Notes: a model not told the origin generated them from the letters alone. A stretch of 64,000 nt of DNA from an archaeon (GCA_029258795.1 JAPDKB010000007.1:96001-160000); one strand, 5' to 3'. Counted from the first letter of the stretch, positions 4,106-19,834 are shown. A program made the numbers and translations.

Positions 4106-4184
4106 ATATGGTGAGTTTTTTATATTGGCGCGTCTAAAAAGATGGTGTTATATTGAGATATTTTGAAGAGGTTCCTGTGAGGGA

Positions 4185-5468
4185 TCATAGGTAGTATGCA
4201 GGCACTCTATATATTGTACAGCCGTTCCTTTTTTCCTTTCCGAACTCGTTGAGGGTGATGACCAGAGCCCTCTCTGGTCTGTACTCGTTCAGAAAGCTGT
4301 AAAATGACCTTCCCAATCTACCAGAGGTGAGCTTTACTTCCACCGGTACTATGGTGTTTTCGTCCCTTATCAGCACGAAATCCACTTCAGCTTTACCTGT
4401 TGTGCGCCAATAACAAAGCTTGTACTCCTCAAACCCTGTGAATAGCTCCCTGAAAACGAAGTTTTCCAGTAGGGCTCCAGCATCACTCCTCGTCTCGAAC
4501 TCGGAGAAGTTGTTTATTATTGCATTTCTTATCCCCATATCCAGAAAATATATTTTCGGAGTTTTTCTCAGCTCTGTTACAAGGTTTCTATGAAACGGTC
4601 TTAAAGTTTGCACGATATACGTGTGCTTGAGTATGCTGAGGTATTCCTCAGCTTTGTAGAAGCTGATGTTGAGCTGTGATGCGAGAGAAGATGTGGACAT
4701 CAGAGATGCTGTTTTGAATGCCAGCAGCTTCAAAAAATCCTCGAACCTTTCCACCTCCTTTATCCCGAAGTGCACCACAACGTCTTTTTCGAGATATAGA
4801 GTGTAGATGTTTTTGAGTACGAGCTGCTTTTCCTCCGTGCCCTCTGTCTTTATCACTTCGGGATAGCCGCCGAAGATCATGTAATCTTTCAGGTGAGTCA
4901 GCAATTCCTTCTGGAAAATTGGCGGAGCGGGCTCGTCCCTTCCCTTAAGGAAGTTTTTTACTGAAGCGTGCTTCTCTCTGAAGACTCTGGCAAGACCATC
5001 ATCCCTGGCTATCAGAAACTCCTCGAAATCGAAAGAGTAGAGCTCGAAAAGAAAGAGCCTCCCTACCAAGTACGGAAGCACATTTGTTCTTAATTCCAAG
5101 GATGAAGAGCCGGAGAAGATCACTTTTACATCTTCCGCAAAGTGATCGTAGATCAGTTTGAGCTTCTCTCCCGCATTTTTGACACGCTGAATCTCGTCCA
5201 GAAAGAGGAACAGCCTTTTTCCCTCTTTTTTGAATCTTCTCACAAAGTTTAAAGGGTCATCCTCAAGAGCGCGTCTCATATCTGGAAGATCAAGATTTAT
5301 GAACGCTTTTTCTTCATTCTGTATTTTTTGGAAGAGGAGTTGAAGGAGGGTTGTTTTTCCCACCTGTCTTGCACCCCTCACACCCAGCATCTCCTTCCTG
5401 TCCAGCAGCTTCAATAACCTGTCCTCAAGCTTCCTCTTGTAGATTTTATTTGCACCAGCTCCATCCAT
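4185..5468 (-). CDS. AAA+ ATPase (AAA_14 + DUF4143-type) with C-terminal PD-(D/E)xK-like domain
   Basis: GARQVGKTT, LFLDEIQ, SGSS, GGYPE, KIYFLDMG, EVDFV...PVEVK. Confidence 0.9.
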   Translation of the reverse strand: MDGAGANKIYKRKLEDRLLKLLDRKEMLGVRGARQVGKTTLLQLLFQKIQNEEKAFINLDLPDMRRALEDDPLNFVRRFKKEGKRLFLFLDEIQRVKNAGEKLKLIYDHFAEDVKVIFSGSSSLELRTNVLPYLVGRLFLFELYSFDFEEFLIARDDGLARVFREKHASVKNFLKGRDEPAPPIFQKELLTHLKDYMIFGGYPEVIKTEGTEEKQLVLKNIYTLYLEKDVVVHFGIKEVERFEDFLKLLAFKTASLMSTSSLASQLNISFYKAEEYLSILKHTYIVQTLRPFHRNLVTELRKTPKIYFLDMGIRNAIINNFSEFETRSDAGALLENFVFRELFTGFEEYKLCYWRTTGKAEVDFVLIRDENTIVPVEVKLTSGRLGRSFYSFLNEYRPERALVITLNEFGKEKRNGCTIYRVPAYYL

Positions 5469-5807
5469 GCAATTCTATTTTTACTCACAACTATTTAAAA
5501 TTTATTCTATAATTTTTGAATTGAATTTGAAAATTCTAGAGATAAAAAAAGGACTCCAGTCATGAGTTGGATTGAGTCATGTAGTGTTAGATTTTGCTAA
5601 CGGTTGTTAGAAAGTTGTGATAATTCATCACAAGCCGAAACTGGTAAGAAAAACGTTCCAGACAGAGTGTGCAATTATTGGTAGAATTATAGCAGGGTCA
5701 GGTTAAGGAACTCGACCCTGCTAAAACGCAATTTAAATGCCGGGGCTCATACTTTGTGTGGCTTGTATTGAATATTTTTGGTTAAATTTTTAATTCTACC
5801 TTTCTAA

Positions 5808-5832
5808 ATAGGTTAAAATGCATTTAACCTAT
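5808..5832. promoter_or_regulatory. Palindromic operator candidate upstream of hsdM
   Basis: ATAGGTTAAA-ATGCA-TTTAACCTAT (perfect 10-bp arms) just upstream of a TTTTTAAA box at about 5856-5863. Confidence 0.5.
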
Positions 5833-5877
5833 AGCTTAAGAGCAACCTATAAAAATTTTTAAACCCACATAAAAACC

Positions 5878-7575
5878 ATGTCATCAAAGGCCTTTGAGCC
5901 GTGGATCCGGATTAGATATCAGATTCTGCTTAAAGAGTTCGGAGAGCGAGAATTCACAAGAAAGGATGCGGAAATTGCTTTAAGCAAGCATGACAAACCC
6001 TTACTAAACATAAACGAGCTCTTCAGCATCTTGGCAAAAGAGGGCTTGTTACAATCTAAAGAAAAAAACGGTAAGCACTTCTACAGGCTCACACCACCTA
6101 CAGAAGAGAAAGTTAAGGCTACGAGGGACCAAATTATAAGAGTTCTGAAAAATGGGGCAGATATCATCAGGAATAGGGAATACAGAATGCTGCTTGTTCT
6201 CTTGTTCTATAAAGCTCTGAGTGATAGGTGGGTCAAGAAGGTGGAGGAATATCTTAAAGAGGTTGATGATGTCAAGGCTGCTTATCATCTCGCAAATATC
6301 GAATACTATTACCTTTATGATGAGCCAGAAGATAAGCTTTATACATGGGATGAGGTTGTAAAGGATAAGGTTAATCTGGTAAACAACTTCATAGTGGCCT
6401 TGAATAGGATTGCTGAACTAAATGATAAGCTGGCCGATATTAAAATTCTTGTCGATAAACTTGGATTTGCAGGATTTGTAGCCAATGAGGAGAACTATCT
6501 ATTGTTTAAGGATCTTGTAGAGAGTTTTAACAGGTTGGACTTGAGGGAAGCTAACTATGATATCATTGGAGATGCTTATGAATGGATTCTGTCCTATTTT
6601 GCTCCAACCAAAGCAAAGGCAGGAGAGATCTATACACCTAGAGAAGTTATCCGCCTGATGGTTGAGATTCTTGATATTCCTCCCAATTCAGATGTTCTTG
6701 ATCCTGCATGTGGTTCATGTGCCATGCTCATAGAAGCGTACAAATACGCTAGTGAGAAATACCAAGACGGTAAAACTTTGAGGCTTGAAGGTCAGGAATG
6801 GGATGATCTAACTTGTGTGCTCGGAAAACTTAACCTTGTTATGCATGGAATCACAGAAAACTACACGGTGCATCTTGGGGATAGCTTGATAAACCAGAAG
6901 TTTTCTCAAGCAGATTATGTTCTGGCCAATCCGCCTTGGAATTTAGATTATGACATCAACAAATCCATGAATGAGAAACTGAAGGAGATTTACAAGTATG
7001 GCATCACTCCAAAACAAAGTGCTGACTGGCTTTGGGTTCAGCTCATGATTCACTTTGCAAGAAAAAAGGTGGCTGTTGTTCTGGATAACGGTGCTTTGTT
7101 TAGGGGAGGAAAAGAGAGGATAATAAGGGAAGGTATAGTTAAAGATGATCTGGTGGAGTGTGTTATCTTGCTTCCTGAGAAATTGTTCTACAATACAGGA
7201 GCACCAGGAATTATAATGATTCTCAACAAAAACAAACCAGAAGAAAGGAAGGGAAAGATTCTGTTTATAAATGCTTCTCAGGAGTTTGAAAAACACCCGG
7301 AAGTCAGGAAATTGAACATCCTAAGCAGGAAAAACATCAACAAAATCGTGAAAGCTTACCGCGAGTTTAAGGACATTGAAGGATTCTGCAGAGTCGTGAG
7401 CTTGGAAGAAATCAAAGAGAATGATTACAACTTGAACGTCACGCTTTACGTTTTCCCACAGGAGGAAGTTGAGGAAATTGACGTTAAAAAGGAGTGGGAG
7501 GAACTGAAGAGGGTTGAGGAGGAGATAAAGGAGGTTGAGAAGAGGGTTGAAGAATTTATTAGGGTGGTGAAGTGA
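5878..7575 (+). CDS. hsdM: Type I R-M N6-adenine methyltransferase HsdM with N-terminal wHTH extension
   Basis: IGDAYEW, GEIYTPREV, DPACGS, ANPPW, LPEKLFYNTG, DYNLNV; about 75-aa N-terminal wHTH-like segment. Confidence 0.95.
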   Translation: MSSKAFEPWIRIRYQILLKEFGEREFTRKDAEIALSKHDKPLLNINELFSILAKEGLLQSKEKNGKHFYRLTPPTEEKVKATRDQIIRVLKNGADIIRNREYRMLLVLLFYKALSDRWVKKVEEYLKEVDDVKAAYHLANIEYYYLYDEPEDKLYTWDEVVKDKVNLVNNFIVALNRIAELNDKLADIKILVDKLGFAGFVANEENYLLFKDLVESFNRLDLREANYDIIGDAYEWILSYFAPTKAKAGEIYTPREVIRLMVEILDIPPNSDVLDPACGSCAMLIEAYKYASEKYQDGKTLRLEGQEWDDLTCVLGKLNLVMHGITENYTVHLGDSLINQKFSQADYVLANPPWNLDYDINKSMNEKLKEIYKYGITPKQSADWLWVQLMIHFARKKVAVVLDNGALFRGGKERIIREGIVKDDLVECVILLPEKLFYNTGAPGIIMILNKNKPEERKGKILFINASQEFEKHPEVRKLNILSRKNINKIVKAYREFKDIEGFCRVVSLEEIKENDYNLNVTLYVFPQEEVEEIDVKKEWEELKRVEEEIKEVEKRVEEFIRVVK

Positions 7576-8678
7576 AAGAAAATATCTATCCTATAGGTTT
7601 TTGGAATAAGGAAGAGTTAATAGATATAATTAAATCTAATTTGCCAGAGGACATATGTGTGAAAACGATTGATTCAAAGTCTTTTCAAGAATTTCTTATA
7701 TTGTCCGATGATCATGGAAAGATAATTCTTAATTATGATAAGAGTGGACACTTTATTTTAAACTTGACACAATGTAAAGAACCTGAAAAAATACAACAAT
7801 CGCTAGAAAAGGCACTCAATTTAGACTACACTCTTCCAGGAAAATACAGAACTAAAACGTGGAAGTTAACTTCTCCTAATTTATCTCGAGAACTTTTGGA
7901 GATTTTAATAGATAACTTTCCTAACCAGGTCAAAAAAATAAAACACACCCCAGACATGTATTTTCAGTGCAAACTTATCGGCAAAAATACACTAACTCAT
8001 ATGAAAAATGGTGATCTCCACTTAAGAGTCGAGCACCGGAATAAAGCAATTGATGAAATTTATGAGATAATTGAATCATTTTTAAAAGATAAAATATCAC
8101 AGAATATGCGAAAATTAAAAGAAATTGATGTAGGCAAAGAAAGCTACGAAGATTTTATCAAAAATCATATTTCTATAGACATTGTTCAGTATATTGATAA
8201 AGATGTTTACAATTATCTTTCAGGAAGAGACGTTTGGGAAATATCGGATGGATTAAGAATTTTTCATATGATAAAAATCGGAAATATCCCATTAAAAAAT
8301 TATAAATGCTTAGTAAGAAATTTTTCTATTGCATTTGAAGGGTTTTTAATTAAATACTTTCTTGAAATAGGTTTCATTGATAAGGAAGAGTATGAGCAAG
8401 ATCCAACCACGGCTAGGATATTTAGCTGTATTAATCGATTGAGAAAGGAGTATGGAGAAATAATTAATCGACGTGAAAAAGGTCTGACAGGAACACTTTC
8501 TGGATTATGGGTAGAGTGTAGGAATAATTATTTGCATTCTGATATGTACAGTTTTTCACACCTATACACAATAAAGGAAGCAGAGTCAAAAATTATTGAG
8601 ATCTTACTCACAATGAAAAGATTGCTCAATGTGTTGCCTCTAATAAGAAACAATAATACAAATGGAGATGAGTCATGA
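7572..8678 (+). CDS. RnlA (RNase LS)-like HEPN ribonuclease
   Basis: NYKCLVRNFSIAFEGFL helix and RNNYLH (Rx4H) in the C-terminal domain resemble the RnlA HEPN domain; GTG overlaps the hsdM stop. Confidence 0.62.
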   Translation: MKENIYPIGFWNKEELIDIIKSNLPEDICVKTIDSKSFQEFLILSDDHGKIILNYDKSGHFILNLTQCKEPEKIQQSLEKALNLDYTLPGKYRTKTWKLTSPNLSRELLEILIDNFPNQVKKIKHTPDMYFQCKLIGKNTLTHMKNGDLHLRVEHRNKAIDEIYEIIESFLKDKISQNMRKLKEIDVGKESYEDFIKNHISIDIVQYIDKDVYNYLSGRDVWEISDGLRIFHMIKIGNIPLKNYKCLVRNFSIAFEGFLIKYFLEIGFIDKEEYEQDPTTARIFSCINRLRKEYGEIINRREKGLTGTLSGLWVECRNNYLHSDMYSFSHLYTIKEAESKIIEILLTMKRLLNVLPLIRNNNTNGDES

Positions 8679-8754
8679 AAATTAACATCGGCGGATCCGT
8701 ACCGGCGCGAATGTGCACCATCCGGTGCACGGCCGAGTACGGACTTACCCGCCT
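8678..8754 (-). ncRNA. Candidate small hairpin RNA with its own promoter, antisense to the R-M operon
   Basis: GC-rich nested stems 8690-8753 in AT-rich DNA; minus-strand CGAAAG-TTTTATATA at 8791-8777 predicts a start at 8753-8754, at the stem's 5' base; UUUU follows the stem. Confidence 0.5.
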
Positions 8755-8896
8755 AAAAGATAATTATGAGTCGGATTATATAAAACTTTCGATTTAGAAA
8801 TTCGCGGAAAAATCGGAAAGAACTGGAAAGATATTGATAAGTGATAAAAGTAGATAGAAAAGATGATTAACTTACTGAAATAGTGAGTGTGGTCCT

Positions 8897-10360
8897 ATGA
8901 CATCTTACAAGGAAATTGAGGGATGGTTTGTGGATCTCATAGAAACATTTAGACGGGAGTATGAGAAACTCAGCGATTCAGAAAAATCGCAACTTTTGAA
9001 CAGTTTTGATTATACTTTTCCCTGTCAAATCGAGGTCTTTTGGATGAATGACCCAATAGAATATCAAGTTATAGTTGTAACCCACGATGAAGATAGGAGT
9101 GATATGGAAATAATAATTCATGGTCCTTTTAAAGCTCATGAGTTTTTAGAAAAAATAGAAAAAATCATGGAAGAGTCCCGATGGCAAAAAGTTGCATATA
9201 CGCGTCACCCTCATAAAGAAGTAGTAAAATATTCCGATCTCTTTATCTCAATACTCAGCAATCTATTTAGGATAATCAAAAATTCTATTTTTTCGAAAGT
9301 TAGTAAAGGGTATATCGGAGGAGTAGCTCTAGGAGCTAGAGAATGGTGTTGGTATGTTTCGGGTAATGTTATAGAACTTGATCCCTACGAGTTAGTAAAG
9401 AATTCAATTGACGAAATGAAGTACAGAGTAAAAAATAAAACTTCTCAGGGAGAAGAAACAATCCAATTATCTCGTATTTCTGAAAATAGATTGAAAGGTT
9501 ATGGGACATACTTCTATCCTATGGTCTGGATAGGAAAAATACCTGAACCGACATTTAAAGAAAAGGTCACTGGAGAGTACAATTTATCTTCAAGTAAAGT
9601 TTTCGACACAAAATTTAATACTTTCAAACTTATCGTAAATTCAGACGGATTTATAGGAATAGTCACTGAAGACAGAACAGAAGCCATTAGGATTTTAAAC
9701 CTGATCTTCGGTGTGGCGTTAGTATTAGGCCATACTTGCTTTGCTGTAAGGGAGTCTGAAATAGCTGAAATAGAAGTCGATCCTCAATCATTAGAAATCT
9801 GCTCAATTTCAATGCCATATTTATCCCTAAAAACTCTATTTATAGATCATTTGAGACCAAAGATTACGTATTTCGGGATGAAAGAAATTTCTGAAAGTGA
9901 CATTAGAGAAATCATAAAAATAGCTGAAAAAATAAATAAAAATCCATACTTGTCAGAACTCTTAATTTTTCTACTTGAAGGAAGTACCCACTATGTAAAT
10001 GCAGAATATTCGCAATCCTTCATTATGAATTGGGTCATAATTGAAAGATACATCGATAAATTGTGGAGAGAATTTTTAGATGAAAAACAAATGTCTAATA
10101 GGCGAAAAGATAAACTTACTAATCCTGCTTTATGGAACATAGATTCTATACTCGAAGTGTTAAATTTAAGTGGGAAACTTGATGATGAGGGTTATGAATT
10201 GTTACGTGATCTAAAAAATAAGAGAAATAATTTCGTCCATAGAGGGCGACTTATTGATAAAGAAAGCGCGAAAGAGTTGCTAAATTTTAGTTATGTGATT
10301 GTCAAGAACGAATTATTCGATTTCTTGAATCTTGAAAATAAGCAAGAGGTGAGGGAATGA
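8897..10360 (+). CDS. HEPN-domain protein (ApeA-like architecture), putative defence RNase
   Basis: C-terminal YSQSFIMNWVIIE...LKNKRNNFVH (Rx4H); long uncharacterised N-terminal region. Confidence 0.7.
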   Translation: MTSYKEIEGWFVDLIETFRREYEKLSDSEKSQLLNSFDYTFPCQIEVFWMNDPIEYQVIVVTHDEDRSDMEIIIHGPFKAHEFLEKIEKIMEESRWQKVAYTRHPHKEVVKYSDLFISILSNLFRIIKNSIFSKVSKGYIGGVALGAREWCWYVSGNVIELDPYELVKNSIDEMKYRVKNKTSQGEETIQLSRISENRLKGYGTYFYPMVWIGKIPEPTFKEKVTGEYNLSSSKVFDTKFNTFKLIVNSDGFIGIVTEDRTEAIRILNLIFGVALVLGHTCFAVRESEIAEIEVDPQSLEICSISMPYLSLKTLFIDHLRPKITYFGMKEISESDIREIIKIAEKINKNPYLSELLIFLLEGSTHYVNAEYSQSFIMNWVIIERYIDKLWREFLDEKQMSNRRKDKLTNPALWNIDSILEVLNLSGKLDDEGYELLRDLKNKRNNFVHRGRLIDKESAKELLNFSYVIVKNELFDFLNLENKQEVRE

Positions 10361-10677
10361 ACGAAAAAATGGTCATAAGTATACTCGTAACCGGACTAAT
10401 AGGAGGTCTCTTTTTTGGAATTAGCTTAAAAACTGGGGAAAGTGTCAATCCAGAATCGATAATGATAAAAATGGGTAAATTGATTTGTGAAGAAATTGAT
10501 AATCCCGAACTTTCTTCCACATGTAAGTTCAATATCCAAATCGTATCACTTATAGCAGGGATTTCAGGAATTATTGAAACCTTTTCGGTTGCTAAAAAAG
10601 CCGGTGATATTAGAATTGGTCTAATGTTATTGTTTGTAGGATTTATGTTTGGATTACTGATTTCATTGGTGAGTTAA
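10357..10677 (+). CDS. Small membrane protein (about 3 TM helices)
   Basis: Three hydrophobic segments; ATGA overlap with the upstream HEPN gene; abuts hsdS. Confidence 0.7.
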   Translation: MNEKMVISILVTGLIGGLFFGISLKTGESVNPESIMIKMGKLICEEIDNPELSSTCKFNIQIVSLIAGISGIIETFSVAKKAGDIRIGLMLLFVGFMFGLLISLVS

Positions 10678-11931
10678 ATGGAAAAGACCTTTGTCGGACA
10701 AATTCCGAAAGATTGGGAAATTGTAAGAGCTGGTCACATCTTTGATATTTACGGCGGCACAACACCATCAACTAATAATAAAGAATATTGGAACGGTGAC
10801 ATATTATGGGTAACTCCTACAGATGTAACTAAATTAAACAATACTCCCTATTTAGATGATACCGAAAAGAAGATAACAGAAAAAGCTGTAAGAGAGTGTT
10901 CATTAAAAATTTTACAACCTGGAACGCTTTTATTGACTTCTAGAGCTACAATCGGATTTACTGCAATAAACAAAAAGCCAGTTACAATCAACCAAGGGAT
11001 AACCGCACTTATTCCAAAGAAAAAAGATATGGTCGATGTTTTATTTTATAATTATTATTTTAGATTGCTAAGAACCTATCTTCAACAACTCGGAGCAGGA
11101 AGCACATTTAAAGAAATTTCTAGATCGATAATTAAGAAGCTCAAAATCCCACTCCCACCCCTCCCCGAACAAAAAAAGATAGCCGAAATTTTAAGTACAG
11201 TAGATAAAGCAATCCAGAAAGTCGATGAAGCGATAGCGAAGACTGAAAGGCTGAAGAAGGGTTTGATGCAGGAGCTTTTGACGAAAGGCATAGGGCACAA
11301 GGAGTTTAAGAATACGGAGATTGGCAGGATTCCGAAGGAGTGGAAAATAGTAAAGTTGGAGGATGTAGCCAAAGTGTTTGATTGCAAACATCGGACGCCC
11401 ACGTACTATTCTGAAGGCTTTCCGGTTTTACTTCCGAGAAATGTTCAAGAGGGACGCATATCTTTAGAGGATGCTCCGAGAACAAGTTACGAAGAATATC
11501 TCGATCTCACAGAAAAATACAAACCTGCAAGAGGCGATATTATTTATACGAGAAACGCTAAAGTAGGAGTTGCAGGAATGGTGATGACTAATGAAGAATT
11601 TGCACTAGGACAAGATTTAGTAGGCATAAGACCTCTCAAAAAAGTCGAGTCCAATTATTTGTTATATGTGTTGAATTCTAGTATAATCAGGAGATATTTG
11701 ATAAAAGCCCAAACAGGTTCTACCTTTAAAAGGATAAATCTAAGTTTAATTAGAAAATTAAAAATTCCACTCCCATCACTCGAAGAACAACACAAGATCG
11801 CCGAAATTCTCTCAACAGTTGATAGAAAGCTCGAACTCGAAAGGAAAAGAAAGGAGAAGCTTGAAAGGATTAAGAAGGGTTTGATGAATGATTTGTTGAC
11901 GGGGAGGAAGAGGGTGAGAGTAGAATGTTAG
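10678..11931 (+). CDS. hsdS: Type I R-M specificity subunit HsdS
   Basis: Two TRDs; repeated IPKDW/IPKEW and LKIPLPxLxEQxKIAEILSTVD; KKGLMQELLT and KKGLMNDLLTG. Confidence 0.96.
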   Translation: MEKTFVGQIPKDWEIVRAGHIFDIYGGTTPSTNNKEYWNGDILWVTPTDVTKLNNTPYLDDTEKKITEKAVRECSLKILQPGTLLLTSRATIGFTAINKKPVTINQGITALIPKKKDMVDVLFYNYYFRLLRTYLQQLGAGSTFKEISRSIIKKLKIPLPPLPEQKKIAEILSTVDKAIQKVDEAIAKTERLKKGLMQELLTKGIGHKEFKNTEIGRIPKEWKIVKLEDVAKVFDCKHRTPTYYSEGFPVLLPRNVQEGRISLEDAPRTSYEEYLDLTEKYKPARGDIIYTRNAKVGVAGMVMTNEEFALGQDLVGIRPLKKVESNYLLYVLNSSIIRRYLIKAQTGSTFKRINLSLIRKLKIPLPSLEEQHKIAEILSTVDRKLELERKRKEKLERIKKGLMNDLLTGRKRVRVEC

Positions 11932-12893
11932 CAGATAGTTTAATTGTTAAGGGAAAAGTTTTCGTTAATCTACCCTTCAGAGAGTATAGAAAATTAAAAG
12001 ATGCTATAATAGAATTTATGAAAGCTGAAGGCTATGATTTTATTTCGCCTTTTTCTCTTTTTCATGAATTCTTATCTTTAACATTCACATTACGGTTCCC
12101 CAATGAAGTTCCAATTTCCTTACGAATCAAAAAGTTTCTTAACATTATCGACCATACCAAGTTTCGCGAAAAGGTGTATTTTTACTATCTCTTACGTGTA
12201 AGAAACGACGTACCTTTTGAATTGACTATTCTCCTCTATCCTGGAAAAATGAAAAGGAAAGATGGTATCATACTTGAAATAACAGCCAAACCCACCATTT
12301 ATTTCAAACTTACACAACTCCACACAAAAACAAAATTAATTAGTGAAGAGGACTATAGTTTCATAATATTTGAAAATAAAGAATTTATAAAGAAAATAGC
12401 CAGATCTATTGGTGGGTACATAGTAGAAGAGCCAAAACCGTTGTTAGAATATGTAAAAAGTGAAGTCTCTGAAAAATTAAGAAAATTTGAATTTGATAGG
12501 TTAGCTAAAATATTAGAAGAGAGCAAAGCAAAAATAGAAACTGGTAAAATCAAAGAAGGTATGGACGATTTGCGAGGGTTCATTGAAAACTTTTTCTTTG
12601 AGCTTGTTTCTAGAACTGGAGAAAAACCAAAATCGAGAGATCAACCTGAGAAAAATCTAGAAATTTTAGAAAAAGTAGGATACATAAGTGGAGAAATAAA
12701 AGGATTAATTTATTCTTCACTTATCAATGGAGTATATAGAAAAATCTTATCTGAAAAACATCATAAAAGAGAATCCTCTGATCTATTCACAGCAAGATTA
12801 TGTGTTAAGATAGTAGAAAACGTCGTTGATATTCTATTAGAGTTGGTTTATCATTATAAAATCAAGATACGAAATAATGAGGGTGTCCCCTAA
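11925..12893 (+). CDS. Hypothetical protein with C-terminal HEPN/Abi_C-like helical domain
   Basis: EGMDDLRGFIE...LEKVGYIS...ILSEKHH pattern resembles HEPN helices with a degenerate Rx4H; overlaps both hsdS and hsdR. Confidence 0.55.
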   Translation: MLADSLIVKGKVFVNLPFREYRKLKDAIIEFMKAEGYDFISPFSLFHEFLSLTFTLRFPNEVPISLRIKKFLNIIDHTKFREKVYFYYLLRVRNDVPFELTILLYPGKMKRKDGIILEITAKPTIYFKLTQLHTKTKLISEEDYSFIIFENKEFIKKIARSIGGYIVEEPKPLLEYVKSEVSEKLRKFEFDRLAKILEESKAKIETGKIKEGMDDLRGFIENFFFELVSRTGEKPKSRDQPEKNLEILEKVGYISGEIKGLIYSSLINGVYRKILSEKHHKRESSDLFTARLCVKIVENVVDILLELVYHYKIKIRNNEGVP

Positions 12894-15800
12894 TGTCCCT
12901 TGAAAAAGCTTATCTTGATGAGTTTTGTAAAAAGCTGGAAGAGATTGGGTGGAAAGAGTTAAAGCCTCAAAGCTTGGATAATCATTTAATCAAAGAAATT
13001 TTTGAGAAGAAGGTGGAGGAGCTGAATAAGGACGTTCTTGATGCTTATGCGGAGCAGAAAGATAAGATCATGAATCAGGTTTATTTGACTATCCAGAATG
13101 CTGATGAAGTGAAGATGCTTGATATTTTGAGGTTTGGTGCTGACATCGTGATCAAAAAATGGAATTCTTTGATTCCTTTGAATATAAAGCTGATTGATTA
13201 TGAAAATGTCCGAAGAAATAAGTTCAATTACATAAGAGAGCAGGAAATAAAGCATGGGAATAATGTTGACAGGCCTGACATTCTGCTTTTTGTTAACGGA
13301 ATTCCTCTTGTTTTGATAGAGGGTAAAAGTCCGATCATGCAGAGTTTCGGCGAGCCGTATTATGAAGGACTAAAGCAAATAATGAGGTATCAAAAGGAAA
13401 TAAGATCCCTCTTCAAATTCGTTCAGTTTGGTGTAGTTGCAGCAGATAGAAATCCTTACATCCCCACGTTCCCGAGAGAAGAAATAAAATCTCCTGCCGG
13501 CTACGGATTCTGGAAAGTAAATAGAAAGGAGAGCATCTTTGATCTGTTAAAACCTGACAGATTGCTTGATGTTATAAGACACTTCATATTTTTCACGAGA
13601 GACAAGAAGGGAGAGAGAACAAAGATCATAGCAAGATACATGCAGTATTTTGCCACAAAACGAGCAATGGAAAGGATCAGCAAATATTTGGAAAACAAGG
13701 ATAACAAAAATCAGGGTTTGATATGGCATTGGCAGGGATCGGGTAAAACATACACAATGTTCTTCATTGCTTACCAGTTCCTTCTCAGGTATAACAAAAG
13801 GAATCCACTTGTGTTTTTTGTTATTGACAGAATAGAGCTGGAGAAACAGCTGGAGGATGTGTTTAAGTCAATAGAACACAAAAGAGTTGGAGATGTTAAA
13901 AGAATAGAAAAGATAGAAGAACTGAAAGAAGTCATAAAAAATGCAGATAGAGAATGGGGACTTAAAATAACCACGATACAAAAATTCCAGCCTAGGGAAC
14001 TAGACATAAAAGAAAAGGTTGAGAAGAAAGAAGTCCTCTTTCTGATAGATGAAGCTCATAGAAGTCAATATGGAGATTTAGCAGCCACAATGAGAAAAAT
14101 ATTTAGCAAAGCCATCTTCATTGGATTTACCGGCACGCCAGTATTCGTAAACGAAAGAAACACATTCAAGCACTTTGCTTACCCTCCTGACGAAATATAT
14201 CTTGATGTTTATTTCATTCAGCAGTCTCAGGAAGATGGCTTTACTTTACCTATAATTTTCAGAGTGATCGAGGAGAAAAAAGAGAAAATAGGGGGAATAG
14301 ACATACTGCTAAGCGAGGATGATATAAGGGCGATATTAGAAGCTTACAAAGAGGATGAAATGGAAGTTGACAGCATCTTAGAAGGTGAGATAGCAAGGAA
14401 GTTAAAGAAGCAACTAAGGAGCAAAATTAGGAAGACAAGAATAATTCTAGAGAACGAAAAAAGAATTGAGAAGGTGGTGGAATACATAAAGGAGAATATA
14501 AGGGAAGACACGGAAAACTTTACTTTCAAGGCAATGATAGTAGCGGCAAATAGGACAGCTTGTGTAAGGTACAAGAAAATAATGGATAAGCACTTCCCAG
14601 AAGAATTTAGTGAAGTTGTGATGTCATACCAACAAAATGAAAAAGAAGAAATCCACACGTTTAAGGAGAAATTCCTTAAGAGATACAACACAAGGGACTG
14701 GAATGAAGCTAACGAAAAGGTAAGAGAAAACTTCCTTAAGAAGGAGTATCCAAAAGTTCTTATCGTTACTGACATGCTGCTAACTGGATTTGATGCTCCC
14801 ATTCTCAAAGTGATGTATTTGGATAAGCCGATATTTTATCACAGATTATTACAAGCAACAGCAAGGGTTAATAGGCCTTATCCTGAACTGAATAAAAAAC
14901 ACGGGTTAATTGTGGATAGTGTCGGATTGCTGGCCCACATACAAAGAACCCTGAATATCTACCAATATCTAGCGGAAGAGAATTCAGAAAAAATAAGGGA
15001 GGATTTGAAAAATGCATTTAAAGATAGTGAGAAAGAGCTGGAAATTTTAAAACAAAAAATAGATTACCTGAAAACCAAACTAAAGGATTATGGTATCGAT
15101 CTGGAGATGATAGCTAAATGTCTAAAGAACAACGATCTAAGCTTTTATGAGGATCTTAAGGAAAAAATAAGCGGTCCTAATGGTATGGCGATGTATTTCA
15201 CAGAAAAAGAAGATGTTAGAAAAATGATGAGATTCGTCAAGGAAGCCTTGGAAATATACAAATCGCTTGGTGCTTATCCTAAAAAGCTGGATTATAAGTG
15301 GGAAAAAGATGCTCTTTTTGTAATCTATAATATGTTTTTGAAAACAGTCAACAAAGGAAGGAAAAAGGTTGTTGGCGAGGTGTGGGATAAATTAATTGAA
15401 CAAATTCACAGGTCAACTGTAGTAGAAGAGCTCATAGATAAGGTGGAGAAGGAAGTAAAAGCTGTAAAGCCTATAAAACCCCAAATCAAAGAGGCTGCTG
15501 TAACGTTCTATGAGATTAGGAACGTTGTTATGGATAGACTTCACAACCCTCTCTACAGAGAGATTTACGAGAGGTTAGAAAGATTACGAAAAATGTGGCT
15601 TGAAAGAAACATCGGCGTTGAGGAGTTCATAAAGGAGCTTGAAAAAGAGCGGGAGGAGGTAGAGAAACTTGAAAAGTTAGAACAAAAACCAGGTTGGGAA
15701 AAAATCTACAAAATGACCTCCGAATATTTACAGAAAAATCTTGGTGAAAGATTGGAAATTCCAGAATTGAAAAATAAGTTGAAGGATATCTTCGAGAGAA

Positions 15801-15946
15801 ATAGATTTTTAGAGGTGGATGAAAAGGAAATCAGACTGATTGTTGCGAAAGCTTTATTGAGACATAAGATGGATCCTAAAAAACGTTATGAATTAGAAAC
15901 AAAGATCGTAGAAATGATAATAGACGAAGTTAGGAGATCGCTATGA
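12893..15946 (+). CDS. hsdR: Type I R-M endonuclease/translocase HsdR
   Basis: RPDILLFVNGIPLVLIEGK nuclease, WHWQGSGKT, DEAHRSQYG, FTGTP, DMLLTGFDAP, LLQATARVNR. Confidence 0.96.
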   Translation: MSLEKAYLDEFCKKLEEIGWKELKPQSLDNHLIKEIFEKKVEELNKDVLDAYAEQKDKIMNQVYLTIQNADEVKMLDILRFGADIVIKKWNSLIPLNIKLIDYENVRRNKFNYIREQEIKHGNNVDRPDILLFVNGIPLVLIEGKSPIMQSFGEPYYEGLKQIMRYQKEIRSLFKFVQFGVVAADRNPYIPTFPREEIKSPAGYGFWKVNRKESIFDLLKPDRLLDVIRHFIFFTRDKKGERTKIIARYMQYFATKRAMERISKYLENKDNKNQGLIWHWQGSGKTYTMFFIAYQFLLRYNKRNPLVFFVIDRIELEKQLEDVFKSIEHKRVGDVKRIEKIEELKEVIKNADREWGLKITTIQKFQPRELDIKEKVEKKEVLFLIDEAHRSQYGDLAATMRKIFSKAIFIGFTGTPVFVNERNTFKHFAYPPDEIYLDVYFIQQSQEDGFTLPIIFRVIEEKKEKIGGIDILLSEDDIRAILEAYKEDEMEVDSILEGEIARKLKKQLRSKIRKTRIILENEKRIEKVVEYIKENIREDTENFTFKAMIVAANRTACVRYKKIMDKHFPEEFSEVVMSYQQNEKEEIHTFKEKFLKRYNTRDWNEANEKVRENFLKKEYPKVLIVTDMLLTGFDAPILKVMYLDKPIFYHRLLQATARVNRPYPELNKKHGLIVDSVGLLAHIQRTLNIYQYLAEENSEKIREDLKNAFKDSEKELEILKQKIDYLKTKLKDYGIDLEMIAKCLKNNDLSFYEDLKEKISGPNGMAMYFTEKEDVRKMMRFVKEALEIYKSLGAYPKKLDYKWEKDALFVIYNMFLKTVNKGRKKVVGEVWDKLIEQIHRSTVVEELIDKVEKEVKAVKPIKPQIKEAAVTFYEIRNVVMDRLHNPLYREIYERLERLRKMWLERNIGVEEFIKELEKEREEVEKLEKLEQKPGWEKIYKMTSEYLQKNLGERLEIPELKNKLKDIFERNRFLEVDEKEIRLIVAKALLRHKMDPKKRYELETKIVEMIIDEVRRSL

Positions 15947-16227
15947 GGAACCTGAAAGATTTAGTCGAGGAAATTAAAAAGGAACTTGGAATTGAAGAAA
16001 AAGTAAAGATCGAACTTAAGAATTATAAGCGGTTGATAGCCTCTACGTCCCTTGAGAAAAACATTATAAGAATAAACAGAAAGATATTGGACAAAGATTT
16101 CGTGGAGAAAAAGCTAGGATATGAAAATCATGAAGAATTCGTGATGAAAGTGCTGAAACACGAACTAATGCACATAAAACTAAAAACACGATGGCACGTT
16201 CCGCAATATTTTGAAAAATTGATGTAA
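15943..16227 (+). CDS. Small HExxH metallopeptidase-like protein (YgjP/SprT-like minimal zincin)
   Basis: IIRIN...VLKHELMHIKLKTRWH; translationally coupled to hsdR. Confidence 0.75.
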   Translation: MRNLKDLVEEIKKELGIEEKVKIELKNYKRLIASTSLEKNIIRINRKILDKDFVEKKLGYENHEEFVMKVLKHELMHIKLKTRWHVPQYFEKLM

Positions 16228-16277
16228 CGGCAGATTCTTTGGCGAGGAACTCTTTGTGTCCGCCATTTATAAATGTT

Positions 16278-16354
16278 TTTCCACTTGGGCAAAAACTGCT
16301 TGCAATTTGTTTCCACTTGGAAAAGAACTGCAGGTAGTTTTTGACCAGATGGAA
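16278..16354. repeat. Three CCA-NN-TGG sites at exact 32-bp period
   Basis: TTTCCACTTGG at 16278 and 16310, each followed by AACTGC; CCAGATGG at 16345. Confidence 0.55.
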
Positions 16355-16414
16355 AGAAATATTAGATCCTGCTGAACGTAACATCCCGTGCGGAATTAAT
16401 ATCAAAAACAAAAC

Positions 16415-16460
16415 GTTAGATTTAAATAACAATTGTTACAAAAATCTAACATATGTTAGA
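16415..16460. promoter_or_regulatory. Tandem TAAC-N4-GTTA operators of the MNT-HEPN operon
   Basis: TAACAATTGTTA (16427-16438) and TCTAACATATGTTAGA (16445-16460, covering the ATG), 20 bp apart. Confidence 0.6.
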
Positions 16461-16986
16461 AAAATGTGACGAGTTTAAATTGATGGAGTTGTTCTTCAGG
16501 AAGCCACTGTACAGATATCACTTTCGTGAGTTATGCAGGTTGCTGGGCTGGAGCCCCTCCAAGCTCAGGAGCAAAATAAACATCTTGAAAAGGATGGGTC
16601 TCGTGAAAGAAATGAAAGAAAAAAACATGAAAATATTCATTGCCAACACGGAAAATGAAAACTACAGGAGATACAAAATCGTTTACAATCTTCTAAATGC
16701 TTACAAAATTGCGGATTATCTCGAAAAAAACCTGGAATACTTCGATGTCATTATCCTTTTTGGCTCAGCGGCTGATGGAGAGGATACTGAAACCAGCGAT
16801 TTCGATATATGCATTATGGGCAGTAAAGAAACACCTCTAAATCTCGAAACCCTCGAAAAAAAGCTCGGAAGAAAGATCTCGTTGCTTTTCATTGAAAACA
16901 TAAATATGTTGCAGAAAAGAAACCCCGAACTTTTAAACAATATTCTGAACGGCTTTGTTATTAAGGGTTATCTGAAGGTGTTCTGA
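16453..16986 (+). CDS. wHTH-MNT minimal nucleotidyltransferase (MNT-HEPN antitoxin)
   Basis: N-terminal HTH (FRELCRLLGWSPS); LFGSAADGEDTETSDFDI. Confidence 0.9.
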   Translation: MLEKCDEFKLMELFFRKPLYRYHFRELCRLLGWSPSKLRSKINILKRMGLVKEMKEKNMKIFIANTENENYRRYKIVYNLLNAYKIADYLEKNLEYFDVIILFGSAADGEDTETSDFDICIMGSKETPLNLETLEKKLGRKISLLFIENINMLQKRNPELLNNILNGFVIKGYLKVF

Positions 16987-17255
16987 TGCAATGGGATGAG
17001 TGTATGAAAAAGAATTTGGTAAAAATGAAAAGAAAAGATCCAGAACTGGCGAGATCATTGCTAAAAATCGCAATAGAAAGGGTTAAATTCTTTTCATCCA
17101 GAGATGTGTCTGTGTTCATGCTGGAAGGTATCTATGAAGCCATACTCGAAGTTTGTCATGCATTTCTGGCTCTGGAAAAATATATTTCCAAAGAGCTGGA
17201 AATTTTCGAAATTCTGAAGAATGAGCTTGAAAAGCGCCTGAAAATTCAATCCTAA
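16986..17255 (+). pseudogene. HEPN toxin with internal deletion
   Basis: HEPN N-terminal helices (DPELARSLL...YEAILEVCHAFLAL) join directly to a last helix; no Rx4-6H/Y; only 89 aa. Confidence 0.62.
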
Positions 17256-17272
17256 ACTTAAGATAGAAACAC

Positions 17273-19834
17273 TCACCCTGCCTCCACCCCAGCCTTGCTT
17301 CTTGCTGTAATCTTCCTGTCCAGCACGAGCTTGCCGTTCTCGTCAAACTTCACGCCAAAGACTCTCGAGATTCCGCCTTCCATCACCACGCCGTATATGC
17401 GAGATGCCTTTTTAACCGTTATGTCGTTGTGAGAAATAACTATGAACTGCGAACTCTTGGAATACATGTTGATCAGATCGCCGAGCTTTTCAGAATTCAC
17501 AGGATCCAAAGCTGCATCTATCTCATCCAGAGCATAGAACGGATACGGCTTGTACTGCTGCACAGCGAACAGAAAAGCTATGGCAACCATCGTTTTTTCT
17601 CCGCCGGACAAAGCGTCAATGCTCGTGATCTTCTTGTTTTTCGGCCTCACGTTTATCAGCAAACCGCTTTCTATGTCATCTTCCCTCTCAAGCTTCAGCT
17701 CCACACTTCCACCGATCAGCTCATCAAAAACCTCGTTGAACTTTTCATTCAGACCTCTCAGCGTGTCCATAAAAACGCGCTTCCTCTTCTCCTCGATCTC
17801 CTCAATCATCCCGAGTATCCTGGCTTTCTCCTCCCTCAGCTTCTTAACCTTTTCAGCAAACTCCTCATAGTCTTTTCTGAACTCCTCGTAATCCTCTATA
17901 GCTTTAAGGTTGACAGGAGAGAGAGCACGTATCCTCATCTCTATGCTCCTTATCTCAGCCTGCAACTGCTGCGGGTCCTTCTGCTCCAGCCCCTCCCTGT
18001 CCTTATACTTCTCAAATTCAATCATGATGTTCTCCAGCTCTCCCTCCAGCCTCGCCTTCCTTATCTTCAGCTGGTTAACCTCCGCTTCCAGCCGCAACCT
18101 CTGCTCCACCTTGAACCTTCTTTCTTCCTTCAGCTTGGCAAGTTTCTCCATCAACTCCTTCTTCTTCTCTTCCAGCTTTTTGACCTCCTGATTCTCCTCC
18201 TTCTCGCTCCTTCTCTTCTCCTCAAGCAGAGAACTCAAGTCCTTTATCTCCTGCTCCAGCTCCTCCATCTCCTTATCTATTTCAGCAAGCCTTCTCTCAT
18301 ACTCCTTGATCTTGGCCATTTCAACTGCCTGAAGCTTCTTCTTAGCTTCCTTTATGTGCCCGCCAATTATCGCTCCAGACGGTTCGAAAAGCTCGCCCTC
18401 AAGCGTAACAACCCTGACCCCTCTTGTCCTTCTCGCAGCTTCAATATCTTCAGCTACAAGCGTATCTCTGAACACGTACCTGAAGGCCTTCTCGTATTTC
18501 TTGTCGAATTCCACCAGATTGATTGCAAAATCCACTATACCCGGCATCTTTGCAGCTTGCTCTGCCTTGCCGGAAATCGGATGCTCTTCCAGCCTGTCAA
18601 GAGGTAAGAACCTCAACCTTCCAAGCTTTTCTCTCTTCAGATAATTTATGGCTTGAATGGCTACATCTTCGCTTTCAACAACCACATCATCGAGATGATT
18701 TCCTGCTGCAACCTCTATAGCTGTGCGGAACTTCTCGTCAACCTTCATGAGCTGTGCTATAGTGCCAATGACACCATCCATGCCAAGAGCAAGCAGCTGG
18801 CTCAATGCTCTGTTTCCGGCATCGATAGCTGAGCTTACCCTTTTGAGATGAGCAATCATCTCTTCAACATTCTTCCTCTCTCGCTTAAGTGCTTCAAGCT
18901 TCGCATGCCTCTTGTTTATCTTCATCACAAGTTCCTCTATCTCCCTCCTAAGCTCCGCATTCACACTCTTCTCTATTATCTCCTGGTTCAGCTTTTCAAT
19001 TTCCTTCTCAATCCTCTCTATCTCCTCATCACTCTCTCCTGCCTTGGAGCTTATGGCTTCAAGCTCCTTCTCCTTGACCTCAAGGTTTCTTTTCACACTC
19101 TCCAGCATGGACTCAACCGCTTTAAGGCGGGAATAAGCAAGGTTTGCCTTCAGCATGTCAAGCCTTTCCTCCAGCTTTCTGTATTCAATGGCAGCATCCC
19201 TCTCCTTCTTCAGCTTCTCCACAATCTTCGTCTTCTCTTCCAGAATTATCTCCGCTTCCGCAAGCTTTCTCTCGGCTTTTTCCAGCTCCTTCAATGCCTT
19301 CTCCTTCTTCTCGTTGTACTCCCTTATACCGGCAATGTCATCGATTATCTCCCTCCTCTCCTTCGGCCTCATCTCAAGCAATCTTGTAATATCCCCCTGC
19401 TGGATTATGTTGAATGACTCCGCATCTATACCTATGCTTCTCAGCACCTCAACCAGCTTTCTCCTTGTCACCGTCTTGCCGTTTATTTTGAAAACGGATT
19501 TCCCGCTCCTGTCAACCTTTCTGGAGATCACAAGAACATCATCCTCAACATCCTCCACAACTTTTCCGGAATTATCCAGATGAAGCTCAACAACCGCATA
19601 ATCTGCTGGCTTCCTGCCGTTACCTCCGTTGAAAATGACCTGAGCAAGCCTCTCGGCTCTTATGTTGGAAGACCTTGAACCGAGAACGAACACCAACCCA
19701 TCGATTATGTTGGACTTGCCCGAACCGTTTGGACCTATGATCGCGTTGAACTCCTTCTCCAGCGGTATCTCTACCCTGCCAGCGAAGGACTTGAAGTTCT
19801 CGAAAACTATGCGCTTTATGTGGGTGGTGCTCAT
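17273..19834 (-). CDS. smc: Chromosome segregation protein SMC (unusually short, 853 aa)
   Basis: GPNGSGKSN, IIQQG, hinge (GVIGTIAQL, GRLRFLPL, VTLEGE...GAIIGG), LSGGEK, LDEIDAALD. Confidence 0.96.
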   Translation of the reverse strand: MSTTHIKRIVFENFKSFAGRVEIPLEKEFNAIIGPNGSGKSNIIDGLVFVLGSRSSNIRAERLAQVIFNGGNGRKPADYAVVELHLDNSGKVVEDVEDDVLVISRKVDRSGKSVFKINGKTVTRRKLVEVLRSIGIDAESFNIIQQGDITRLLEMRPKERREIIDDIAGIREYNEKKEKALKELEKAERKLAEAEIILEEKTKIVEKLKKERDAAIEYRKLEERLDMLKANLAYSRLKAVESMLESVKRNLEVKEKELEAISSKAGESDEEIERIEKEIEKLNQEIIEKSVNAELRREIEELVMKINKRHAKLEALKRERKNVEEMIAHLKRVSSAIDAGNRALSQLLALGMDGVIGTIAQLMKVDEKFRTAIEVAAGNHLDDVVVESEDVAIQAINYLKREKLGRLRFLPLDRLEEHPISGKAEQAAKMPGIVDFAINLVEFDKKYEKAFRYVFRDTLVAEDIEAARRTRGVRVVTLEGELFEPSGAIIGGHIKEAKKKLQAVEMAKIKEYERRLAEIDKEMEELEQEIKDLSSLLEEKRRSEKEENQEVKKLEEKKKELMEKLAKLKEERRFKVEQRLRLEAEVNQLKIRKARLEGELENIMIEFEKYKDREGLEQKDPQQLQAEIRSIEMRIRALSPVNLKAIEDYEEFRKDYEEFAEKVKKLREEKARILGMIEEIEEKRKRVFMDTLRGLNEKFNEVFDELIGGSVELKLEREDDIESGLLINVRPKNKKITSIDALSGGEKTMVAIAFLFAVQQYKPYPFYALDEIDAALDPVNSEKLGDLINMYSKSSQFIVISHNDITVKKASRIYGVVMEGGISRVFGVKFDENGKLVLDRKITARSKAGVEAG

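Follow-up and report, generated by a model that had tools for sequence, protein, structure and literature searches.

Cargo genes embedded in an archaeal type I restriction-modification operon: a possible second line of defence behind restriction

Can genes nested inside an archaeal type I restriction-modification (R-M) operon act as a second line of defence that the restriction complex itself keeps in check? The question is raised by positions 5878-16227 of a 64,000-nucleotide (nt) stretch of archaeal DNA (GCA_029258795.1, JAPDKB010000007.1:96001-160000), which as a whole is called the window and from whose first letter all coordinates are counted. Type I R-M systems are described as often containing embedded genes (Payne et al. 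2024, bioRxiv 10.1101/2024.01.29.577857), and experimental evidence for backup systems triggered when restriction fails is reported for only a few bacterial cases, namely PrrC, Ronin, PARIS and retrons (bioRxiv 10.1101/2023.04.06.535777). In the window, a listing of open reading frames (ORFs) gives a plus-strand string of hsdM, cargo A, a hairpin, cargo B, a three-segment membrane protein (TM), hsdS, cargo C, hsdR and a small HExxH ORF. The explanation preferred here, at a probability of roughly 0.5, is that this is a type I R-M operon on an acquired island, whose junction cargo would serve as a second defence line, with A, TM and C guarded by the Hsd proteins and B autonomous.

The layout of the locus is compact, with overlaps of 4 nt (hsdM/A, B/TM and hsdR/HExxH ORF), 7 nt (hsdS/C) and 1 nt (C/hsdR), TM and hsdS abutting at 0 nt; the single non-overlapping junction is a 218-nt gap at 8679-8896 between cargo A and cargo B. 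An earlier reading made from the sequence alone (the sequence-only reading) had given this gene order with its coordinates, which the ORF listing reproduces exactly, and had stated that all junctions except 8679-8896 overlap or abut, which the coordinates bear out. It had also called the cargo richer in AT than the hsd genes, and the guanine-plus-cytosine (GC) contents agree: 0.303 for A, 0.332 for B, 0.330 for TM and 0.304 for C (0.30-0.33), against 0.402 for hsdM, 0.374 for hsdS and 0.363 for hsdR (0.36-0.40), in a genome of 0.44.

The core genes lie on the plus strand and comprise hsdM at 5878-7575 (565 amino acids (aa); Pfam N6_Mtase 7.1e-102, HsdM_N 1.3e-6), hsdS at 10678-11931 (417 aa with two target-recognition domains; Methylase_S 6.1e-65 in two stretches, PADLOC Specificity_I 6.8e-101) and hsdR at 12893-15946 (1017 aa; HSDR_N 3.4e-28, SWI2_SNF2 3.5e-55, ResIII 8.1e-27, T1R_D3-like 2.7e-20). 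Every member of the HsdM alignment keeps NPPW (N351-W354). With each of the three proteins matched by Pfam and the PADLOC type I models in agreement, the assignment to type I R-M holds, and the operon is, as judged from these family matches, an intact-looking type I R-M system carrying embedded cargo. The window's own cargo proteins gave nothing significant in Pfam, PADLOC, NCBIfam or PHROGs, and no model in PADLOC-DB v2.0.0 matches families A, C or TM.

Cargo A (7572-8678, plus strand, 368 aa), whose GTG start overlaps the hsdM stop, is a predicted TBP-TBP-HEPN endoribonuclease. Eight relatives at 40-56% identity were found among 5.8 billion proteins, and all nine family members share, without variation, R317, N318, Y320, H322, S323 and D324 (RNxYxHSD) and, from an earlier helix, R249 and E256; the RNNYLH motif that had been noticed beforehand is indeed present at residues 317-322, with its R and H kept in 9/9. 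In the AlphaFold2 model (predicted local distance difference test score (pLDDT) 87.1) two alpha/beta domains precede a helical one. In a Foldseek search of the PDB with this model, E. coli RnlA takes all of the first nine ranks (best E 2e-7): ranks 1-8 are full-length chains with 366-394 aligned columns and E from 2e-7 to 1.1e-5, and rank 9 is the RnlA NRD-HEPN fragment, after which come TATA-binding proteins and HEPN domains (sacsin HEPN, 4nqf). RnlA is described as TBP1-TBP2-HEPN with catalytic R318/H323 and as restrained by RnlB (PMC8266594), and since the fold of cargo A follows this layout, the label RnlA-like is supported at the level of architecture. Cargo A, which shows the features expected of a HEPN protein, is thus supported as an RnlA-like TBP-TBP-HEPN predicted endoribonuclease.

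Relatives of cargo A are encoded at eight metagenome loci (L017-L024), with hsdM upstream in L017-L022 and hsdS downstream where the contig allows (L017-L020 and L022). The gene lies inside the hsdM-hsdS junction in 6/8 loci, or in 5/6 distinct ones: the proteins of L019 and L020 are identical, and L023 duplicates L024, which leaves five embedded and one not. No conserved small gene that could represent an RnlB-like partner adjoins A across the eight loci, where the neighbours vary by locus, and RnlB_antitoxin (PF15933) has no match above cut-off in the genome, a weak negative as the control likewise gave 0/14 genomes. A complex prediction for HsdM with cargo A, run without controls, scored 0.00 and counts neither for nor against binding. 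Scans of viral contigs found no relatives of A or B, and tblastn searches of plasmids found none of A or C.

Cargo B (8897-10360, plus strand, 487 aa) consists of an N-terminal region of about 360 aa and a C-terminal HEPN domain, probably of the DUF4145/Swt1 type. Among its 27 relatives found and aligned, W379, E383, R443 and H448 are invariant in 27/27 (an E...RNxxxH pattern), which places the expected RNNFVH motif at residues 443-448 with an invariant R and H. Pfam matches in the family are to DUF4145 (10/27, best 6.5e-7), HEPN_Swt1 (8/27) and RiboL-PSP-HEPN (5/27), the window copy itself having none, and PADLOC-DB v2.0.0 gives weak matches only (PDC-M18A E 0.0015, CARF_HEPN E 0.0077). The sequence-only reading had called B ApeA-like; of the 25 families listed at E<=1 for the 27 members, none is HEPN_Apea, and as the relatives match DUF4145, HEPN_Swt1 and RiboL-PSP-HEPN instead, cargo B is, by motif and family matches, a HEPN protein, probably of the DUF4145/Swt1 kind. 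Its N-terminal region of about 360 aa has no match in Pfam, PADLOC, NCBIfam, PHROGs or PDB sequences, and an Atlas search with the N-terminal 350 residues gave no usable match. A fragmentary second cargo B, with 27-33% identity over residues 2-269, is present on a 1739-nt contig of the same genome (C19, L062).

Cargo C (11925-12893, plus strand, 322 aa) has an alpha/beta N-terminal half and a helical C-terminal half; a word-based search found 3 relatives, an exhaustive profile search 154 representatives at E<=1e-3, 69 of them at E<=1e-30. The alignment (A4) holds 76 of 150 listed representatives and is biased to full-length proteins, fragments and most proteins with the N-terminal half only having been excluded. 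In these 76 members H280 is kept in 75, N244 in 67, R217 and E298 in 64 each and E221 in 62, and R282 is kept in 53 with Lys in 15 more. The Arg of the Rx6-7H motif proposed from the sequence alone, Arg272, is found in 14/76 only, and no Rx4-6H is conserved among the 76. Weak DUF4145 matches occur in 15/76 members (best 5.1e-4). The helical half can at best be read as a DUF4145-like HEPN domain that is degenerate and lacks the canonical Arg. The name Abi_C-like fares no better, no Abi_C appearing in the Pfam families listed for the 76 members and the sole lead being an Atlas cluster (0.89) of which 13% of members carry Abi_C. Of the up to three HEPN effectors that had been proposed, the two canonical ones, A and B, stand, and the third, C, is at most a degenerate HEPN-like protein. 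Many proteins of about 320 aa (P0127-P0170) match residues 1-180 of C only, from which the N-terminal half looks like a module joined to varied C-terminal domains. Anthrax-tox_M also matched C (E 0.0049), but its 16.7 bits lie below the cut-off of 25 bits and the match was treated as chance.

Full-length C lies inside the hsdS-hsdR junction in 4/4 loci, namely the window, L017, L038 and L039. The TM protein (10357-10677, plus strand, 106 aa) abuts hsdS, and three hydrophobic segments are seen in it by hydropathy, as the sequence-only reading had said. Its family has two invariant Cys, and homologues (34-39% identity where measured) adjoin hsd genes in L017, where TM follows A, in L039, at the hsdM-hsdS junction, and in L054, L055 and L056, beside hsdM/S/R. 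All four TM matches at E<=1e-8 among 401 genomes (L039, L054, L055 and L056) adjoin hsd genes; 3 weaker matches examined have no hsd neighbour. hsdR is present in the window, L017, L054, L055 and L056. The TM protein is, as its neighbourhoods indicate, a recurrent type I R-M companion at 6 loci including the window. Cargo inside hsd operons elsewhere, which the sequence-only reading had proposed to look for, thus recurs for A, C and TM.

Profile-profile comparisons of the cargo-family alignments A2/A1, A2/A3 and A1/A3 were not significant, and PDB sequence searches with A1, A3 and A4 gave no relevant match (P0027, a 285-aa fragment, was excluded from A3). In the sister operons, the hsdM-hsdS junction of L017 holds a Schlafen AlbA_2/HATPase_c_4 protein, A, TM and two unknowns, and its hsdS-hsdR junction C; the hsdM-hsdS junction of L018 holds an AlbA_2 protein, an OLD-type ATPase-TOPRIM protein, a Shedu SduA_C protein, A, an EVE protein, an ASCH protein and a GNAT-EVE protein, with an unknown, a 107-aa ORF and an NYN RNase between hsdS and hsdR. 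The hsdS-hsdR junction is occupied by an M48 peptidase in L020, by GmrSD in L022 and by C with a MazE/PIN pair in L038, and in L039 a PIN gene adjoins the TM gene between hsdM and hsdS. Variable cargo at both junctions had been anticipated, and the OLD, Shedu, EVE, ASCH, GNAT-EVE, NYN, PIN/MazE, M48 and GmrSD genes of the sister operons provide it. As one part of the explanation held at even odds, the two junctions of this hsd lineage may be insertion hot spots for other defence genes.

The operon also sits in DNA of distinct character. The host is archaeal, as had been supposed, since archaeal models of small- and large-subunit ribosomal RNA win the clan competition, and its genome is 1.17 Mb, 96% complete, with a GC content of 0.44. 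Positions 4144-17288 form a low-GC island of about 13 kb (GC 0.363 against 0.44 for the genome) that carries an AAA_14/DUF4143 ATPase gene, the hsd operon and an MNT pair. Two same-genus genomes match the window at 73-75% DNA identity up to 4143 and again from 17289, with nothing between; as these matches stop and restart there, the segment is read as a variable island, with the qualification that in both genomes the contigs run out at the island break or no more than about 1.3 kb from it. Cargo C was found in 0/41 other genomes searched of the host phylum. Horizontal acquisition of the island belongs to the preferred explanation and is held as firmly as the rest of it.

Under the preferred reading, restriction would be the first defence line, and the cargo would form a second by stopping infection through RNA cutting (A and B) or membrane damage (TM). 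The near-confinement of A, TM and C to hsd operons, together with the finding of no dedicated inhibitor genes, suggests that these three are guarded by Hsd; they would probably be silenced by the Hsd complex, or read its state, in the manner of PrrC, which is described as masked by EcoprrI (PMC3710099), and of RonA of the Ronin system, described as a 61-aa membrane protein that is invariably linked to hsdS/hsdM, that kills on its own and that HsdMS suppresses (bioRxiv 10.1101/2023.04.06.535777). Cargo B, by comparison, would be an autonomous module that probably brought the gap and hairpin upstream of it along on insertion and is self-regulated via its N-terminal domain. A stronger form of the idea, an archaeal "anti-anti-restriction" in which one Hsd complex restrains three unrelated effectors (an antitoxin-less RnlA-type RNase, the TM protein and a HEPN-derived C with its catalytic Arg exchanged) and releases them when a virus disables restriction, is rather unlikely.

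Several observations weigh against the preferred reading. The likeness of A to RnlA is at fold level only: TM-scores are just 0.26-0.29, which is attributed to differing domain orientations, none of the nine members matches HEPN or RnlA, or indeed any Pfam family at E<=1, and there is no PDB sequence match between the two, so that the RnlA-like label holds for fold, architecture and motif and fails for membership at the sequence level. The A relative of L023/L024 (37% identity) lies outside any detected hsd operon and is split into 245- and 119-aa ORFs (L023:2114-3225, L024:2117-3228), adjoining a gene for a 941-aa UvrD helicase/PD-(D/E)xK nuclease. The HEPN nature of C is weakly based, as its AlphaFold2 model (pLDDT 74.4) has in Foldseek a best domain match to HEPN 2hsb (probability 0.99, TMt 0.67) at E 0.2, with RnlA appearing at E 0.17 and no match at E<=1e-3 in the PDB or in viral structures; hhalign of C with family B pairs E221 with E383 and H280 with H448, though at E 0.0063 and a probability of 6%. 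Two sets of 401 genomes each, drawn from other archaeal phyla, gave nine further C matches (5 and 4), partial or weak, none of them near a detected hsd gene; seven of the nine have DNA around the match (0/3, L040-L042, and 0/4 near hsd), the other two (L036 and L043) being cut by contig ends. The embedded TgvAB of a V. cholerae type I operon is also reported to protect when cloned alone (PMC11411939).

Cargo B adjoins R-M genes in only 4/15 loci: hsdM lies directly 5' of it in L003 and L005, L012 has hsdS and hsdM no more than 4 kb away, and a gene for a type IIG Eco57I-like enzyme abuts it in L010. Elsewhere its neighbours are DO-GTPase2/GAP1-N2 (L006), an NOV_C/sacsin giant with an SMC-like ATPase (L002) or housekeeping genes (L004); 8 of the 11 other loci were checked solely by tblastn with the window's Hsd proteins, which gave no match. 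That the cargo might occur just as often outside R-M loci had been named by the sequence-only reading as an outcome that would tell against it, and this is what was found for B alone, 11/15 of its loci having no detected R-M gene. From these 15 genome loci, B is taken to be a mobile defence-island gene that is not bound to R-M.

The same facts lend weight to an alternative in which the cargo consists of self-contained modules that use the hsd operon as a safe landing site, with shared transcription and joint transfer, and that work independently of Hsd. The sister-operon junctions hold known autonomous systems (OLD, Shedu, GmrSD and PIN/MazE), TgvAB works when cloned alone within the account cited above, for Payne et al. 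embedding is a general principle of discovery that involves no functional coupling, and RnlA is described as having its own autoinhibited resting dimer (PMC8266594); to these is added the position of B, mostly outside R-M loci. Plain hitch-hiking does not, however, predict that A, full-length C and TM are near-restricted to hsd operons, nor does it sit easily with an A that has no detected RnlB partner, the protein which restrains RnlA in E. coli, or with the overlap of the A start with the hsdM stop and of C with both hsdS and hsdR. For the operon as a whole this account is possible though doubtful, whereas for individual genes it is nearly as likely as coupling to Hsd.

C and TM, and perhaps A, could also be non-toxic accessory or regulatory subunits with roles in assembly, localisation or the alleviation of restriction. 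A C that has lost the HEPN Arg (14/76), has kept other polar residues and is always at hsdS-hsdR (4/4) would fit such a role, as would a TM that abuts hsdS, and the YgjP-like gene found regularly 3' of hsdR in the lineage suggests that conserved accessory functions exist there. The sister operons L005, L018 and L022 lack C or TM, which shows that they are not needed for R-M function, and A keeps a complete, invariant RNase motif; an accessory role is accordingly considered improbable. Least probable by far is that the cargo genes are decaying passengers without present function, an idea that draws on the HExxH ORF resembling a shortened YgjP-like gene, on the small MNT partner at the island's right edge having no family match and on the fragmented hsd genes of L039. 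A, B and C are full-length against their relatives (coverage 95-100%) with all invariant residues kept, and open frames of 322-487 codons in DNA of 30-33% GC are unlikely by chance.

In PrrC-EcoprrI a HEPN RNase gene likewise lies among hsdM/S/R, with restriction first and the RNase as backup as the proposed logic (PMC3710099); PrrC differs in having an N-terminal ABC-ATPase, no ATPase domain being present in A, B or C, and the locus in the window differs in its archaeal host and its several distinct cargo genes at two junctions. With RnlA-RnlB and LsoA-LsoB cargo A shares the TBP1-TBP2-HEPN architecture and the Rx4H motif, whereas detectable sequence similarity and an RnlB-like gene were not found and A is embedded in hsd operons. 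Ronin (RonA with an HsdMS decoy, E. coli ECOR55), the nearest published counterpart of the TM protein, likewise has a small membrane-protein gene tightly linked to hsdS/hsdM in many loci, but RonA has 61 aa and a single predicted TM helix and Ronin has no hsdR, as opposed to 106 aa, three segments and hsdR here; TM and RonA are likened by description, not by sequence. Anantharaman et al. (2013, PMC3710099) link at least 16 HEPN clades to R-M operons, "primarily in bacteria", propose PrrC-like control, place DUF4145 in R-M operons, and treat RnlAB as acting without DNA-level restriction, its family being listed as bacterial. Relatives of B, and more weakly of C, match this DUF4145 type, B differing in its unmatched N-terminal region of about 360 aa and C in the missing motif Arg. 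Like the genes of Payne et al. (2024) and TgvAB, the cargo comprises variable defence genes nested between type I R-M genes, with the difference that A, C and TM have no match in PADLOC-DB v2.0.0 and B a weak one only.

In concept the locus is not the undescribed system that the sequence-only reading took it for, as the idea of a HEPN guard on R-M was published in 2013 (PMC3710099) and embedding in 2024 (bioRxiv 10.1101/2024.01.29.577857). A literature search covering sources other than the supplements of Payne 2024 and Silas 2023 found no RnlA-like protein in hsd operons or in archaea and no TM or C family, and a term search of a review of archaeal R-M (PMC11033074) returned no mention of HEPN, toxins, abortive infection or embedding. 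What is seen is a known principle in an archaeal variant, with three apparently undescribed families. If true, the "anti-anti-restriction" form would carry the guard principle of PrrC and Ronin over to archaea and to RnlA-type proteins, until now regarded as independent of DNA-level restriction, and an RnlA-type nuclease with no detected RnlB partner provides a natural test case for the restraint of such enzymes. The locus and its sister operons further supply a new family of small membrane proteins associated with type I R-M and a family fixed at the hsdS-hsdR junction, and the hsd lineage, as a site for defence-gene cassettes, is usable for discovery in archaea through "guilt by embedding".

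Features of lesser bearing complete the description of the locus. The hairpin after cargo A that the sequence-only reading had pointed out is present at 8690-8753 (plus strand, 64 nt, GC 0.688) with a folding free energy of -39.2 kcal/mol and a z-score of -5.14, matched by 0/200 shuffles. It occurs once in its own genome, belongs to no Rfam family, and has no copy in 60 fetched loci and no match in viral contigs; the promoter and terminator scan used bacterial-type models and is uninformative for an archaeal host. A 40-aa ORF at 8675-8797, whose ATG overlaps the cargo A stop, reads through the hairpin and is probably due to chance, as no relative is seen in other loci.

HsdM carries about 90 extra N-terminal residues, which had been described as a winged helix-turn-helix (wHTH) domain; the sole support for this is a sub-threshold Pfam match to DUF4364 (E 0.0097, residues 44-95), which leaves it a possible wHTH. 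The extension is common to L018/L019 and to a paralogue on contig C8 of the same genome (alignments from residue 9) and absent in the HsdM of L005. At 5808-5832, 46-70 nt 5' of the hsdM start, a perfect 10-nt inverted repeat (ATAGGTTAAA-N5-TTTAACCTAT) immediately precedes an AT-rich, TATA-like stretch and may be an operator for the extension; it is not conserved upstream of related wHTH-hsdM genes. The paralogue belongs to a second type I locus (C8:33615-41573, L061:2616-10574), in which a 586-aa hsdM with the same extension is followed by genes for a 329-aa protein (weakly TrmB-like), a 620-aa KAP NTPase and a 587-aa unknown and by an hsdS cut by the contig end, with no hsdR before that end.

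The last gene of the operon is the HExxH ORF (15943-16227, plus strand, 94 aa), whose SprT-like match (E 0.0023) is below cut-off. The protein after hsdR in L017 is YgjP-like by Pfam (2.2e-40), with homologues 3' of hsdR in L018, L005, L022, L038 and L039, and the HExxH ORF occupies the position of these YgjP-like genes in 6 related operons; BLASTP against the L017 protein aligns HELMH with HEVAH at a weak E of 0.037. It is probably a short remnant or mini version of a YgjP-like metallopeptidase gene. The hsd operon of L018 (3956-20817), which likewise has its YgjP-like gene 3' of hsdR, is very long and co-directional, and 10 or more genes are embedded in it. A family of about 291 aa without a Pfam match recurs at the hsdS-hsdR junction of L005 (12670-13545) and L018 (15505-16383) at 32% identity, and the L005 member is not significantly related to cargo C by hhalign against A4.

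At the left edge of the island, 4185-5468 (minus strand) encodes the AAA_14/DUF4143 ATPase, for which tblastn gives at least 8 further matches in the genome at 25-43% identity. At the right edge, 16453-17255 holds a nucleotidyltransferase gene of the HTH-MNT kind (MntA-like; Polbeta 4e-10), whose last nucleotide is shared with an 89-aa ORF downstream. This ORF has no family match and no Rx4-6H, and it could be what is left of a HEPN partner after truncation. Between the MNT gene and the HExxH ORF, the spacer contains a 43-nt imperfect inverted repeat (77% complementary) at 16273-16360 and an 18-nt palindrome at 16415-16450.

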